64,000 bases of DNA from an uncultured bacterium (GCA_963701645.1 OY969616.1:502463-566462); one strand, 5' to 3'. Shown: positions 59,015 through 63,999, numbered from the stretch's first letter. The notes: a model not told the origin generated them from the letters alone. Numbers and translations are program-made.

Positions 59015-59644
59015 GTGAAGAAATATAATGGTGCCAGTGCAATTCTCCTTCTCGGTTCAAAGTCTGCATCACGGCAAATGTTGTTGCGTCAAGCGCAGAT
59101 TCCTTTTTTGTGCGTAGAACAGAGTGCTGATGAAACTGCCTGTGATTGGAATTTACCGCTTATACAGCTGGTCAATGCTATAGCGCTCTGCAAAATGGAG
59201 CATGTGATACTGCAGCCAGGCAAACAAGAAGGGGATATATGTTTTGTTCTTACCGCAGATACCATGTCTCAGGATCAAGATGGTACAATTCGAGGAAAGC
59301 CATCTGATCAAAGAGATGCAAAAACAAAAATTATTGCTGCACGTAATGGTGTCTTTTTATGTACCGCTTTTTGTCTTGATAAAAAAGTCTGGCAGAATGG
59401 ACAGTGGCAACATATGTACCGCATTAATCAACAAGTAACGTCGGAATTTTATTACGATGTTCCTGATGCATGGACGGATCTCTATCTCGAGCGCTCATGG
59501 AGTATGAACGCTTCAGGTGCCATTGCCGTTGAAGACTATGGTGCACAATTTCTAAAAACCGTTTCTGGTTCACATTCTACTATTATTGGATTGCCTATGT
59601 TTCAAGTGCGGCAGGCACTAGAAGATCTTAATTTTTTTCGATAA
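59015..59644 (+). CDS. maf: Maf-like nucleoside triphosphate pyrophosphatase
   Basis: GTG start. ILLLGSKSASRQMLL (compare LASxSPRR), TADTM and GAIAVEDYGAQF..GSHSTIIGLP are typical of Maf. Confidence 0.75.
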   Translation: MKKYNGASAILLLGSKSASRQMLLRQAQIPFLCVEQSADETACDWNLPLIQLVNAIALCKMEHVILQPGKQEGDICFVLTADTMSQDQDGTIRGKPSDQRDAKTKIIAARNGVFLCTAFCLDKKVWQNGQWQHMYRINQQVTSEFYYDVPDAWTDLYLERSWSMNASGAIAVEDYGAQFLKTVSGSHSTIIGLPMFQVRQALEDLNFFR

Positions 59645-59663
59645 GTCTTCTTGCTTATTTTTC

Positions 59664-59691
59664 TTTACAAAACATATATATGCATTACAAT
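59664..59691 (+). promoter_or_regulatory. Putative promoter TTTACA-16-TACAAT
   Basis: -35 at 59664-59669 and -10 at 59686-59691, upstream of the ATG at 59759. Confidence 0.4.
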
Positions 59692-59758
59692 GCGTAACGA
59701 GAACTAATTTTATAAGTCTTTTATTTTACATATTAAATAACTAAGAGGCATTATTACT

Positions 59759-61246
59759 ATGAAAAAAAGTTTGCGAAATGCGATTATTGTGCTATTAGGT
59801 TTGTACGTAGCCAATGGCTATGCATCGGAAAGAAAGTTCACAATCCCAGCTCCCGAATTTCCGTTTCCTAAGCTTTCGCTGGAGTCCTATGGTCGTGCGA
59901 CAGAATGGGCAGTTCGCAAAAATCAATCTGAAAACCCACGACCCAAGCTTCCTCCCAAAAGTCAAAGTGTAAAAAATATGATTTACCGTGGTCAAGTTAA
60001 TCCGAAAAAAATGGCACCTGCTCCAAATGAACGGAATGCGGAAAAAGTAGTGACCAGCTGGACGAGTGGTACTCCACAGAAGGAAAAGAGTCCTCGAGAT
60101 GCGACAAGTCCGCTTGCTAGTCCACGGATAAGTCCACTTACAAGTCCGATCGGAAGTCCACGAAGTTTGCGCATAAAAAGTAATAAAAGTCCGCGCGATG
60201 CACAGAGTCCTCGAGAAAATAAAAAGATTGGAAATTCTCAAGAAAAAACTCAAAACCAAGAAATAACTATGAAAGTGTATGATCTTACTCTTCCGGTAGG
60301 ACAAAAAGAGCAGAGAGTAGGACAAGAGAAGAGAGTATCTTTTATGGAGCCTATAACAAGACAAAGATCTTCTTCTTTGCCTGAAAAGAGTTCATCTGAT
60401 GAAAAGCTCCATTCAAATGAAGAGAATTTAACCATAGCTCTTTCTCCACGATCGGAGGATCTCGTTAAATACAAAGAGAAACTTGTGGATTTGATTGATA
60501 ATTTTAGGAGGGCACTACTCCAAGATTTAGAAAAGAGAAAGAATCTTTTAGAAAGAAAAAAGAAGAAATCAATCATGAAGCGTAAAAGAAAAAAAATCGA
60601 AACCGGGTTAGAAGTAATCAATGTAGATAGGGAAAATGTATATAAAATTATCAGCGATGTAACGGGTCTTTCTATTCGGGCATTGCAGCTTCCACAATTT
60701 CGTCTAGCTGGCATTATAGGCTACAAATTAGAAAATACAACATTTTTTAAAAATACTCAGCGATTGTTTTCAATGATAAAATATAATAGAAAGCAGCTAG
60801 CCAAGAAGGGAAATAAACAGGAAACAGAGGTGAGCCCTTTGCCAGCCCAACAAACGTTTAAAATGCGAAAACAAAAGTTGGAAAATGTTGAAAATCTTCA
60901 AACAGTGAAAGATAAGAAAATAAGTCCACCAACTTTTTCTCCGAGGGATGATGCATATGTTAAATACACGCAGAAAATGATGAACTTGATTGGTTGTTTC
61001 GATGATATACTCAAGCAAAATGTTGATAAAGAAAAAGTATACAGCATTATGAGCGACATCACTGGTTTCAGTATTCATGCACTGCAATCGAAAGAATCTT
61101 TAGAAAATACTGTCCTTAGCGAATTAGAAAAGAATAAACAACTTTTTAAGAATACCAAAAAGGTATCTTTAATTATAGGGCATAACAGACGCGAGCGCCT
61201 TGCAGGTGATAGTGAAAATGAAAAAAAAATTGTTGCTAAACAGTAA
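59759..61246 (+). CDS. Secreted basic protein with an SPRx repeat tract and a duplicated C-terminal module
   Basis: Signal peptide MKKSLRNAIIVLLGLYVANGYA. KSPRDATSPLASPRISPLTSPIGSPRS..KSPRDAQSPRE. Two copies of an SPRxD..YxKx..VYxIxSDxTGxSIxALQ module. Confidence 0.8.
   Translation: MKKSLRNAIIVLLGLYVANGYASERKFTIPAPEFPFPKLSLESYGRATEWAVRKNQSENPRPKLPPKSQSVKNMIYRGQVNPKKMAPAPNERNAEKVVTSWTSGTPQKEKSPRDATSPLASPRISPLTSPIGSPRSLRIKSNKSPRDAQSPRENKKIGNSQEKTQNQEITMKVYDLTLPVGQKEQRVGQEKRVSFMEPITRQRSSSLPEKSSSDEKLHSNEENLTIALSPRSEDLVKYKEKLVDLIDNFRRALLQDLEKRKNLLERKKKKSIMKRKRKKIETGLEVINVDRENVYKIISDVTGLSIRALQLPQFRLAGIIGYKLENTTFFKNTQRLFSMIKYNRKQLAKKGNKQETEVSPLPAQQTFKMRKQKLENVENLQTVKDKKISPPTFSPRDDAYVKYTQKMMNLIGCFDDILKQNVDKEKVYSIMSDITGFSIHALQSKESLENTVLSELEKNKQLFKNTKKVSLIIGHNRRERLAGDSENEKKIVAKQ
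60089..60217 (+). repeat. Coding Ser-Pro-Arg low-complexity repeat tract
   Basis: AGTCC(N)CG(N)GA-type units recur, encoding an SPRD/SPRI/SPRS series. Confidence 0.8.
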
Positions 61247-61297
61247 AAAGAAGCATGGTTACAAAATCAAAATCGGTTCTCAGTTAAAGGTATTATT

Positions 61298-62803
61298 ATG
61301 ACACAGAAAATTTTACAAAATTCAGTAGCCGTTCTATTAATTATTTGCATGGCCAATATTTATGCGGCAGAGCAGCAGTGGAAAGTTGCAGAAAAGCAGA
61401 TCGCAGGGAAACAGCGCCGCGGTTCTGATGCTTCAGTTCATGAGCGCAGGGTTGTTCCTCCCATTCCGACGAGCACCAGTGTAAGGGATATTAATTCTCC
61501 TCGTACCCCAAGCCCGAAAAAGTCTTTTGCAATAAATGCAGTAAAACCCATAAAAGTTCCTACAAGTCCACGAACTGCAAGGCGGGGTGAGATTGTTGAG
61601 AGTTTACAAAATACAAAAAAGATTGAATATGAAGAGAGTCCACGAGATGCAAAAAGCCCTGGAAAAAAACGTAATAGTTCTCGACGTAATAGTTCAAAAC
61701 ATAGTAGTCCGCGAGATGCAAAAAGTCCTGCGAGAGACCCAGGAAGTCCTGTAGAAAAACGTAATAATTCACGACATAATAGTCCAAAAAAGAGTAGTCC
61801 ACGAGAAGATGCAAAAAGTCCTGCAAGAGAGCAAGGAAGTCCTGGAAAAAACCGTATTAGTCCTCGTACAGATCCTCAACCTGAAAAAGAAGCGTTGCCT
61901 GAAAAAACAACGGTATATAATCTTATTTCTCTTTCTCAAGAAGCAAAAAGGAAGGTATATGATTTTGTTTCTTTTCCAGTAACAAATAATAATATGCAAA
62001 AGAACCCGGTAAATACGCAAGAGAGGCGAAAGCATATGAGAAAATATTCATCGGTGAGTAGTTTTAGTGGGACAAGTTCAACATTTATGGAAAGTAATGA
62101 TTCAGGGGAGAGTAATTTAAAGAAGAGCGATTCAAGTACAGCAACACTTGACCTTGCTGTTGAGGGAATGGTGAGTGATCTAAGTGAACTTTTTATCCGT
62201 TCAAAACAATATCCAACCGTAAGAGCAAACTCAGCCTATGGTCCTGTAATGAGAGATTGGGGAAAAGAAAAAAAATCGATTCAAAAAGAAAAGCTACATT
62301 CTCCAGAAAAATCGCCAGTTCAGCAAAAAAAACAAGAGATACTGCCGGTAAACGTGGCATCAGTTCAGCCGGAGGAGCCGAAGAAATTAATTCGTTCGCC
62401 ACGAGATTTTGCTACGGAAGAAAAATATGCTAACAGTCTTATTTGTGTGCTGAATAAATATAAGATGCCGTTGAAGTTTTTAGCAAAACAAAGAAAATCT
62501 TTGGAAGAAAAAATAAAAAATAAACAGGGTCTAGTGTGGGCTAAAAAAAAGAAGAAAACATTGAAGAATGATCTAGTAATAGTGAGAAAAAGCGAAAAAT
62601 GTTTGCAAGAAATTGTACAAGATTCTTTAGATGTTGATCCTTACCTGCTTCAATTTGATGAAGAAAAATTGAAAGGAGTAATAGTGACTAGATTCAAAAA
62701 TGATCTATTATTTTATACTCATACTATAAACTATCTTGATCTTCAGGCGGGACAATGCAAAAAAAATTCAGGATCTAAGGATGCTGATAAAAGCTCAGAG
62801 TAA
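61298..62803 (+). CDS. Secreted basic protein with SPRDAKSP / SPKK-type repeats
   Basis: Signal peptide MTQKILQNSVAVLLIICMANIYA. Three about 24-30-aa units: SPRDAKSPGKKRNSSRRNSSKHS / SPRDAKSPARDPGSPVEKRNNSRHNSPKKS / SPREDAKSPAREQGSPGKNRISPR. Confidence 0.8.
   Translation: MTQKILQNSVAVLLIICMANIYAAEQQWKVAEKQIAGKQRRGSDASVHERRVVPPIPTSTSVRDINSPRTPSPKKSFAINAVKPIKVPTSPRTARRGEIVESLQNTKKIEYEESPRDAKSPGKKRNSSRRNSSKHSSPRDAKSPARDPGSPVEKRNNSRHNSPKKSSPREDAKSPAREQGSPGKNRISPRTDPQPEKEALPEKTTVYNLISLSQEAKRKVYDFVSFPVTNNNMQKNPVNTQERRKHMRKYSSVSSFSGTSSTFMESNDSGESNLKKSDSSTATLDLAVEGMVSDLSELFIRSKQYPTVRANSAYGPVMRDWGKEKKSIQKEKLHSPEKSPVQQKKQEILPVNVASVQPEEPKKLIRSPRDFATEEKYANSLICVLNKYKMPLKFLAKQRKSLEEKIKNKQGLVWAKKKKKTLKNDLVIVRKSEKCLQEIVQDSLDVDPYLLQFDEEKLKGVIVTRFKNDLLFYTHTINYLDLQAGQCKKNSGSKDADKSSE
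61637..61870 (+). repeat. Imperfect in-frame tandem repeats encoding SPRDAKSP... units
   Basis: AGTCCACGAGATGCAAAAAGCCCTGG, AGTCCGCGAGATGCAAAAAGTCCTGC and AGTCCACGAGAAGATGCAAAAAGTCCTGC. Confidence 0.85.
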
Positions 62804-62836
62804 TTGTCGTGTCCCTTCCCATTAATATTTTTTAAC

Positions 62837-62865
62837 TTTACAATTAATTTGAATATTTGTAAAAT
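62837..62865 (+). promoter_or_regulatory. Putative promoter TTTACA-17-TAAAAT
   Basis: -35 at 62837-62842 and -10 at 62860-62865, 49 nt before the ATG at 62914. Confidence 0.35.
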
Positions 62866-62913
62866 TAAAATAAGGGTTTTTAGTGTTTGTATAAAAAAAA
62901 AGGAGATCTTGCC

Positions 62914-63543
62914 ATGAGATACGGCAGAGTAGTTTTTGTGTGTATACCATTTTTGTTATCAGGTATATATGCAGCGGAAAAGCGTAAAGATAAAAAAAAT
63001 GATGGTGGTACAATGTATACCAATGCCCGTCCATCGGCAGTGTATATAAAAAAAGAAGAAAAATTTTCTCAGGAAAAAAAAGATTTGCATAAATCTGCGG
63101 AAAAAGCTTTTATTCATCATGGGTTTAAACCGGTAAAATCAAAACATGAAGGTGTGCGAACATTATTGCGGGGAGAAAAGCAACAAAATCAAAATAAAAA
63201 ATCATCTCATGCTAAAAAGCCAGCAAATTATGATATAGAACAGATAAAGGCAATATTGGATGAGCTGGTGATAAAGAGTGAGGAGGCAGGAAGGAATGTA
63301 CCTCCGGAAAAGAAAAAAATTTGGAAAATTGTGCATGAGGGGCTTAGGAAGGTATGTCAAGATATCGTAGATTTTAATGAGCAGTCGTTTCGGGGAAAAA
63401 ATAAAGTTTTTATTCCTTTTATATCTGAGAATGATGGTCCAGATCCCATGCCGCATATTGTAACTAAAGCATTGGTTTTATCTACTATGAAAAATAATAA
63501 AAAGAAGGGTCCTGAAAATCAGAATGAGAAAGACCCTTCTTGA
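62914..63543 (+). CDS. Small secreted basic protein (209 aa), third member of the local cluster
   Basis: ATG 62914 with an AAGGAG RBS. Signal peptide MRYGRVVFVCIPFLLSGIYAAEK, like its neighbours. Lys-rich. Confidence 0.7.
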   Translation: MRYGRVVFVCIPFLLSGIYAAEKRKDKKNDGGTMYTNARPSAVYIKKEEKFSQEKKDLHKSAEKAFIHHGFKPVKSKHEGVRTLLRGEKQQNQNKKSSHAKKPANYDIEQIKAILDELVIKSEEAGRNVPPEKKKIWKIVHEGLRKVCQDIVDFNEQSFRGKNKVFIPFISENDGPDPMPHIVTKALVLSTMKNNKKKGPENQNEKDPS

Positions 63544-63546
63544 TTA

Positions 63547-63999
63547 TTAGTTGATATATTTATTATGGGGCTTCCATCGTTTTAGAAGCTCATTAAACAG
63601 CACTTCTTTGGGATTTTGGTCAGGATTATGTTCCATAGTAATTGTTGCTTTTTCAAGACTTGTTTGTACAACTGCATCAGTGCAGATAGTTGTGTCGATA
63701 TGATCTATCGCAGGAAGTAACTTTTTTTCCTTAGCTTGTTGTACAATTTGTTCTTGCATAGCAAGTCCTAAAAGAGATTCAAGAATATTGAAAAAATCTA
63801 TGATGCTATAATGGAGCTCTTCTTGATTCTGATGGTCAATTTCTTGAATCTTTTTCTGAAGGCCCGTATTTAAAGCCTTAGTAATAAGTTTTTTGAGTTT
63901 TTCAGAATCATTTTCGGCAAGCCAGGAAAGAAGACAAAGAAGTTCGTAAGAAATAGATAATTGGGCATTGTTGGTGGTGGTGAAATTATTGTCATGCAT
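63547..63999 (-). CDS. Hypothetical protein (at least 150 aa; may extend beyond the window)
   Basis: Open frame convergent with 62914-63543. Helical-looking, with no recognisable motif. The first ATG is 1 nt from the window edge. Confidence 0.5.
   Translation of the reverse strand: MHDNNFTTTNNAQLSISYELLCLLSWLAENDSEKLKKLITKALNTGLQKKIQEIDHQNQEELHYSIIDFFNILESLLGLAMQEQIVQQAKEKKLLPAIDHIDTTICTDAVVQTSLEKATITMEHNPDQNPKEVLFNELLKRWKPHNKYIN

Follow-up and report, generated by a model that had tools for sequence, protein, structure and literature searches.

Diverged, lineage-restricted Ser-Pro-rich basic proteins with predicted signal peptides in a variable slot of a Dependentiae genome

Results

Three neighbouring genes for basic proteins with predicted signal peptides

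The subject of this study is a group of three adjacent genes, named here A, B and C, in a 64,000-nucleotide (nt) stretch of DNA from an uncultured bacterium. This stretch, hereafter the window, corresponds to positions 502463-566462 of a single-contig genome (GCA_963701645.1, OY969616.1) that is 1.48 Mb long and 95.7% complete. The three open reading frames (ORFs) all lie on the plus strand, where a model's reading of the DNA, hereafter the sequence-only reading, had placed them (Table 1). That reading had described a cluster of secreted basic proteins with eukaryote-style Ser-Pro-basic and Arg/Ser (RS)-like repeats, and had proposed that they are effectors that are phosphorylated by host kinases, mimic the substrates of such kinases, or target host chromatin or RNA. 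The observation is confirmed. The interpretation finds partial support, but the proposed mimicry of kinase, chromatin and RS motifs is unproven, and some of it is contradicted.

Judged by their length (495 and 501 codons for A and B), ribosome-binding sites (RBSs), promoter-like sites and native composition, A, B and C are real genes that belong to this genome. Their GC contents are 37.3%, 37.6% and 34.8%, respectively, next to a genomic value of 38.1%, and their synonymous codon choice is native, for which reason recent horizontal transfer was rejected. The ORFs on the opposite strand are ordinary shadow frames, and no RNA family was found at the locus besides the upstream tRNA-Gln. B begins 51 nt past the end of A, with AAAGG preceding its ATG; given this short gap and the lack of a promoter-like site for B itself, the gene is probably co-transcribed with A. 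C is probably a separately transcribed neighbour, which shares only the signal peptide with A and B and contains 18% Lys in its mature form. It most likely starts at the ATG at 62914 and not at the TTG at 62887, as indicated by an AAGGAG site 7 nt upstream of the former (62900-62905), by the gene call on an identical public contig, and by the start of its ortholog (see below).

Signal peptides were assessed by inspection and hydropathy (KD19). Each of the three proteins has a single hydrophobic segment, which is N-terminal, 11-13 residues long and preceded by basic residues. Divided into n-, h- and c-regions, the leaders read MKKSLRN, AIIVLLGLYVA and NGYA/SE in A; MTQK.., VAVLLIICMA and NIYA/AE in B; and MRYGR, VVFVCIPFLL and SGIYA/AE in C, where the slash within the last element marks the predicted cleavage site. 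All of them end with a helix-breaking Asn, Gly or Ser followed by (G/I)-Y-A/(S/A)-E, a small-x-small c-region, and the similarity of the three endings (...NGYA/SE, ...NIYA/AE and ...GIYA/AE) is as the sequence-only reading had quoted it. With a KD19 maximum of 1.17, the segment of A is too short for a membrane anchor. There are no further membrane segments, the KD19 maxima past residue 30 being 0.82 in A, 1.04 in B and 0.24 in C, and no lipobox is present in any of the three; the leader Cys of B and that of C follow Ile and Val, respectively. These are the features of Sec-type signal peptides cleavable by signal peptidase I, and A, B and C are predicted to carry such peptides.

Across the genome, the c-region pattern [IVLGFY][YFW]A[ASQ][EDQ] occurs in 6 of about 600 N-terminal hydrophobic leaders, and half of these six are the leaders of A, B and C. 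Its rarity suggests that the three leaders have a common origin. Position 923419 of the genome encodes another protein with a similar leader (...IYASE). This protein was considered as a further family member and rejected, as phmmer gave no match with A, B or C; by eye, and without a family scan, it resembles a glycosyltransferase.

Table 1. Positions, in the window, of genes A, B and C, of their parts and expression signals, and of the genes that border them (a slash marks a predicted cleavage site; aa, amino acids; pI, isoelectric point)
Feature	Position	Strand	Description and basis
Gene A	59759..61246	+	495 aa, pI 10.0; signal peptide, disordered Ser-Pro-rich basic region, two helical modules
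Gene B	61298..62803	+	501 aa, pI 9.9; signal peptide, Ser-Pro-rich basic repeats, Ser-rich middle, one helical module
Gene C	62914..63543	+	209 aa, pI 9.7; signal peptide MRYGRVVFVCIPFLLSGIYA/AE; Lys-rich; without SP motifs
Signal peptide of A	59759..59824	+	MKKSLRNAIIVLLGLYVANGYA/SE; predicted, n/h/c regions by inspection
Signal peptide of B	61298..61366	+	MTQKILQNSVAVLLIICMANIYA/AE; predicted, by inspection
Ser-Pro tract of A	60089..60217	+	aa 111-153: SPRDATSP, (SPxx)x5 tetrapeptides, SPRDAQSPRE
Three degenerate repeat units of B	61637..61888	+	aa 114-197; 23, 30 and 31 aa; each starts SPR(E)DAKSP
Helical module A1	60434..60793	+	aa 226-345; starts SPRS; Lys/Arg clusters RKKKK, KRKRKK
Helical module A2	60914..61243	+	aa 386-495; internal duplicate of A1 without the Lys-rich insert; starts SPRD
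Helical module of B	62378..62800	+	aa 361-501, C-terminal; starts SPRD; homologous to A1
Promoter-like site of A	59664..59691	+	TTTACA-16-TACAAT; consensus match alone, 10/12 positions
RBS of A	59744..59749	+	AAGAGG, 9 nt before ATG; read from sequence
Promoter-like site of C	62837..62865	+	TTTACA-17-TAAAAT; stretch identical in related metagenome contig L017
maf	59015..59644	+	conserved left border of slot; Pfam Maf E 3.5e-26
150-aa gene	63547..63999	-	conserved right border of slot; family without assignment

Ser-Pro motifs and repeats of A and B

The dense Ser-Pro-basic tracts that had been noticed in the first two genes stand out from the rest of the genome. Among the 1307 ORFs of a crude whole-genome set, SP[RK] occurs 7 times in A and 9 times in B, compared with no more than 2 in the next-best ORF, out of a genome total of 102. 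A has 12 SP dipeptides and B has 16, about four times as many as composition-preserving shuffles give (2.7 and 4.3, respectively; p <= 5e-5). The heading of the sequence-only reading had named three proteins with SPRD, SPKK and RS-like repeats, and its description had placed the dense tracts in the first two; C has no SP motif at all. In A, the motifs are enriched inside the disordered region (p <= 1.5e-4), and the tract itself has a predicted local distance difference test (pLDDT) score of about 40.

At the DNA level, the repeats of both genes are old, imperfect tandem duplications. The five tetrapeptides of A, SPLA-SPRI-SPLT-SPIG-SPRS, follow a 12-bp period (Tandem Repeats Finder: 3.7 copies, 65% match), whereas the period in B is 93 bp (2.3 copies, 81% match), its D1 and D2 copies being 81-83% identical. 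Apart from their common opening, the repeat units of B contain SPGK, SPAR and SPKK, as well as RRNS/KRNS sites.

The octamer SPRDAxSP is common to A and B; its first five residues, SPRDA, are found four times in the genome, twice in each of the two genes and nowhere else. Pro at the SP sites is encoded by CCA, CCT or CCG, and Ser by AGT, AGC, TCT or TCG. DNA blocks shared by A and B do not exceed about 16 nt, for which reason recent gene conversion between them was rejected. The varied codons and the lack of any long common block thus indicate that the motif has been kept at the protein level and is not the product of recent copying.

Shared helical modules of A and B

A and B have a common layout, in which the signal peptide precedes a disordered, basic stretch of about 170 aa with the Ser-Pro motifs, followed in turn by one or two Lys-rich helical modules of about 110-140 aa. 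The two modules of A, A1 and A2, match each other with a blastp E of 2e-15 and a z of 15.5 against shuffles, and A1 matches the module of B with a z of 8.7; outside the motifs, A and B are 23% identical. Judging from these alignments, A and B are diverged paralogs; they are lineage-restricted (see below) and probably arose by local tandem duplication. C was also considered as a paralog, but its similarity to A and B outside the leader is not significant.

A single-sequence AlphaFold model of A (mean pLDDT 51) was used for order/disorder and secondary structure only. It shows a leader helix at residues 3-24, a short helix at 41-54, no structure at 55-230, and helical regions at 231-350 and 398-482, with one long helix predicted confidently. 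Modelled from its three copies, the module is a predicted helical bundle consisting of a long helix and four short ones (pLDDT 65.6). A PDB sequence search (best E 0.4) and a Foldseek search with the module model (best E 5.9) gave no match. Clusters of the type K(K/R)x(K/R), which fit the consensus of a monopartite nuclear localization signal (NLS), are present in A (KKKK, KRKRKK) and in B (KKKKK). Since these clusters lie inside the predicted long helix of the module, they may not work as an extended NLS.

Narrow distribution and fast divergence

Scans of A, B and C against Pfam, NCBIfam and PHROG gave nothing above noise, and no DNA- or RNA-binding domain was found in them by the Pfam scan, the PDB sequence search or Foldseek. 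A word-indexed search of 5.8 billion clustered proteins with A and with residues 60-200 of B returned only the queries, and a HMMER profile of the module run against 1.84 billion representatives retrieved only A and B. Six-frame searches for relatives of A and B in 40 related genomes and then in 261 Dependentiae genomes were likewise at noise level; the matches with E of 0.004-0.008 per genome were dismissed as Lys-rich helices, some of them interrupted by internal stops. Scans of metagenome contigs of the JGI with B and with A yielded no match. The locus has a single further public copy, a Logan contig that is base-for-base identical to the window. A and B make up a new family of very narrow distribution, which belongs to the known class of secreted Dependentiae ORFans.

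While the search for homologs remained empty for A and B, it gave one ortholog for C. This protein, P0005, is encoded on a 1093-bp JGI contig (L017, metagenome 3300004092), where its gene adjoins the same 150-aa gene as in the window. The two C proteins (window 62914-63543 versus L017:130-807) start at the same ATG and share 76.6% aa identity. In nucleotide terms, C is 87.9% identical between the window and the contig; the identity is higher in the 150-aa gene (96.8%) and in the intergenic promoter region (93.5%), and drops to 68% over the last 22 nt, the counterpart of the end of B. The divergence of C is four times as fast as that of the adjoining 150-aa gene, and this, together with the divergence at the end of B, indicates that the cluster evolves much faster than its surroundings.

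The ratio of nonsynonymous to synonymous substitution rates (dN/dS) of C is 0.46 overall, 0.60 in the N-terminal part and 0.31 in the C-terminal part, from which we take C to be under net purifying selection. Its last 60 residues are strongly conserved, and the c-region of its leader is conserved. The ortholog also has in-frame tandem duplications of 27 nt (TNARSSAVH x2) and 15 nt (SAVKV/SAVKA) and a 6-nt indel, which indicates that indel turnover in the cluster is real. The sequence-only reading had suggested that the tract length may vary. For A and B themselves this is doubtful, as their repeats are too diverged for easy slippage, but the in-frame tandem indels between the two C genes show length changes within the cluster.

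Genomic setting and source organism

The closest relatives of the neighbouring RsmH protein, at 53-58% identity, come from uncultured metagenome-assembled genomes, one of which is titled Candidatus Babeliales bacterium, and the gene order ftsK-murF-rsmH-spoVG is common to the source genome and its relatives (compared with L007, L010 and L004). From these RsmH relatives, the synteny and the 1.48 Mb genome, we assign the bacterium to the Babeliales within the Dependentiae; the source organism is thus an uncultured, obligate intracellular member of this phylum and a parasite of protists.

The region between maf and the 150-aa gene differs from genome to genome. In the same three relatives (window 59645-63546 compared), those with maf carry other genes downstream of it, and in one relative the 150-aa gene is separated from maf by a few small unrelated genes. 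A, B and C therefore sit in a variable slot between conserved genes. The 150-aa gene on its right border is 45% identical in the family relative L007 and matches L017 in 91 of 92 aa; its product is acidic, and a MerR-type gene comes next on the public contig. Several of the genes that relatives carry in the interval after maf have signal-peptide-like N-termini.

Secretion machinery in the genome and phylum

The genome encodes two secretins and two ATPases of the GspE/PilB type. Both secretin genes are GspD-like and on the minus strand (G000:C1:1273081-1278201; L015 and L016); they have 813 and 827 codons and are separated by about 4.6 kb. Two gspD genes are present in all TM6 genomes examined (PMC4776705), which the pair found here matches. 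FHIPEP (SctV/FlhA), the export gate of type III secretion systems (T3SSs) or flagella, was not found in the genome, and neither was VirB4, the marker of type IV secretion systems. In Chromulinavorax destructans, the single member of the phylum examined for this, signal peptides are present on 44% of the coding sequences (CDS); this set is enriched in ORFans, and its ORFans are regarded as an apparatus for host manipulation (PMC6561590).

Outside the window, a 420-aa ORF on the minus strand (G000:C1:82222-83484; L018) has an N-terminus, MNFRLKNIFLAMVVFTAPIAHTA, that resembles a signal peptide, and a core like that of protein kinases (HFDLHPGNIL...LTDFG; Pfam Pkinase 38 bits, ABC1 27 bits). No other ORF of the genome matches Pkinase, and the product may be a secreted kinase.

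Discussion

We lean, tentatively, toward the view that A, B and C are exported, fast-evolving host-interaction factors, a class of genes known in Dependentiae. For A and B, it is the lack of relatives in any searched database from which we infer such a role. The sequence-only reading had called the proteins exported effectors. The Sec-type leaders, the basic composition, the predicted disorder and the Dependentiae setting all agree with this, and make a function in the host plausible. The three proteins would leave the cytoplasm through the Sec pathway with cleavable signal peptides, and might then be released either through the secretins of the type II-like machinery or inside vesicles of the outer membrane. 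Mature A and B would consist of the disordered Ser-Pro-(Arg/Lys) region and one (B) or two (A) of the Lys-rich modules, and may act on the protist host. The Ser-Pro motifs could serve as short linear motifs, in the simplest case as acceptor or docking sites for proline-directed host kinases or for readers of phosphorylated Ser-Pro, and the helical module could mediate binding or oligomerization. NopL and LntA, described below, are precedents that lend reason to this view.

Within this framework, the more specific idea that A and B are substrates of host kinases appears unlikely. The consensus of proline-directed kinases, to which the sequence-only reading had pointed, is enriched in B, where [ST]Px[KR] occurs 7 times compared with 1.2 in shuffles (p 2e-4), and P-x-[ST]-P, the type recognized by mitogen-activated protein kinases (MAPKs), is present 3 times in B and is absent from A. 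Improbable as well, in our estimate, is its fullest form, in which A and B are a new effector family secreted by Sec and a type II-like system. In this form, the disordered region would be an array of host-kinase sites, and SPRDAxSP would be a novel short linear motif, read by a cyclin-dependent kinase (CDK), a MAPK or a Pin1/WW-type reader of the protist. The proteins would act as multi-site decoys or phosphorylation-switched binders, and the module, as a new fold, would direct them to their target site, possibly the nucleus.

Several points weigh against a host-directed role, or against its kinase-related part. The [ST]Px[KR] consensus is not enriched in A (1 versus 0.9 in shuffles, not significant), and in most of the motifs, which are of the type SPR(D/E/S/T), the basic residue stands at +2. 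The SPR(D/S) that opens each module could be a helix N-cap instead of a kinase site. The signal peptides were judged by inspection alone. Secretion past the inner membrane, delivery to the host and phosphorylation are proposals; disordered polycations are not typical type II substrates, and in bacteria of this kind a signal peptide often marks no more than a protein of the envelope.

In an account that we consider rather unlikely, A, B and C are polycationic, partly disordered proteins of the bacterium's own periplasm or surface, which bind lipopolysaccharide, peptidoglycan or glycans of the host surface. They would work as structural spacers or adhesins at the infectious stage and have no function inside the host. 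Exported bacterial proteins often contain disordered linkers rich in Ser and Pro. Sec-type leaders in combination with a high net positive charge would suit such a function, fast evolution would suit surface-exposed proteins as well, and the signal-peptide proteins that make up 44% of the CDS of C. destructans necessarily include those of the envelope (PMC6561590). However, family scans found no lipobox, β-barrel, LysM, OmpA-like or other anchoring domain, and the family is absent from the 260 other Dependentiae genomes, a distribution that one would not expect of a structural part of the envelope. The retention of SPRDAxSP in paralogs that are 23% identical also suggests a specific recognition motif and not a spacer. 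Alternatively, the N-terminal segments might be uncleaved anchors that leave the basic domain in the cytoplasm, following the positive-inside rule, where it would bind the cell's own nucleic acids or the membrane. The strongly basic residues just after the hydrophobic segment of C (AEKRKDKK) and the single Lys ahead of the hydrophobic core of B would fit this arrangement, and Lys-rich histone-like proteins are known from other intracellular bacteria, such as Hc1 and Hc2 of Chlamydia. Nevertheless, hydrophobic cores of 11-13 residues with a helix breaker and a small-x-small end are too short to anchor a protein stably and are what cleaved signal peptides usually show. The leaders of C and its ortholog, moreover, have kept the c-region, and we hold an uncleaved anchor to be very improbable.

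Two further accounts, both of which we regard as improbable, concern what the Ser-Pro tracts are for. One is a subset of the effector idea, in which A and B are nucleomodulins that bind host chromatin or RNA through minor-groove motifs of the SPKK/SPXX type or through a domain like those of SR proteins. It would draw on the basic charge, the run of SPxx in A, the two SPKK motifs in B, the Lys clusters of NLS consensus in both proteins, and the precedent of LntA (PMC3903274). Yet the histone analogy made by the sequence-only reading is weak: the two SPKK motifs, at residues 72 and 162 of B, are isolated and 90 residues apart, A and C have none, and single SPKK motifs occur in nine other ORFs of the genome. 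The RS-like analogy fails, as RS/SR dipeptides are few (3 in A and 4 in B) and never consecutive, the longest run being one dipeptide, and there is no RNA recognition motif (RRM). The position of the Lys clusters inside the long helix and the lack of a DNA- or RNA-binding domain speak further against a nuclear function. The other account regards A, B and C as ORFans of recent origin and weak constraint that lack a specific function, and the abundance of Ser-Pro as a by-product of expansion by slippage in DNA rich in AGT-CCN. All searches for homologs of A and B were empty, their repeats clearly come from tandem duplication, and the dN/dS of the neighbouring C is raised (0.46, and 0.60 in the N-terminal part), as one would expect of such genes. 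On the other hand, the ORFs are intact over 500 codons and have an RBS and a promoter, old repeats (81% identity) keep Ser-Pro while the third positions of the Pro codons vary, and the duplicated module is still similar (z 15.5). C is also under net purifying selection, with its C-terminal 60 residues conserved, and a reduced genome of 1.48 Mb seldom retains 3.7 kb of useless coding DNA.

Dependentiae are widespread and almost uncultured parasites of protists. Should the kinase-related interpretation hold, A and B would offer this phylum a concrete case of host-kinase mimicry that could be put to the test, and would exemplify the mimicry of linear motifs by proteins whose delivery needs neither a type III nor a type IV system. 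Independent of this, the locus mainly shows how such genomes come by new exported proteins, namely through duplication in tandem, the expansion of repeats and rapid divergence within a variable slot between conserved genes.

Several kinds of known proteins invite comparison with A and B. They share with the SPKK/SPXX tails of histone H1 and sperm histone H2B the combination of Ser-Pro and basic residues in a basic, disordered tail. In contrast to these histones, however, they have only two SPKK motifs, which are not in tandem, possess neither a globular H1 domain nor a histone fold, and carry export signals. Such signals are also absent from SR proteins, from which A and B further differ in having no RS runs and no RRM (Pfam). 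LntA of Listeria monocytogenes is, like A and B, an orphan basic protein with helical structure and a signal peptide, which is cleaved in LntA; it has a predicted NLS and works in the host nucleus (PMC3903274). In contrast to A and B, LntA is a fully folded protein of about 20 kDa without Ser-Pro repeats, and its producer is a Gram-positive bacterium with no outer membrane to cross.

In its Ser-Pro motifs, the rhizobial effector NopL from Sinorhizobium and Bradyrhizobium offers a parallel, as it is largely disordered with several such motifs, some of them in short repeats. NopL acts in a eukaryotic host, where a MAPK of that host phosphorylates these motifs (PMC7291247 and references 29 and 30 therein). 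However, it is delivered by a T3SS without a Sec signal peptide, its motifs are of the SPQP type instead of SPR(D/E), and it has no sequence similarity to A or B. With the signal-peptide ORFans of other Dependentiae (PMC6561590, PMC4776705), A and B share Sec-type leaders, the absence of domains and homologs, and a genome with two gspD-like secretins. That repertoire is defined by prediction and consists mostly of ankyrin-repeat proteins and hydrolases, with no Ser-Pro-basic repeat proteins described in it. A and B differ from it in forming a family of their own with a new helical module.

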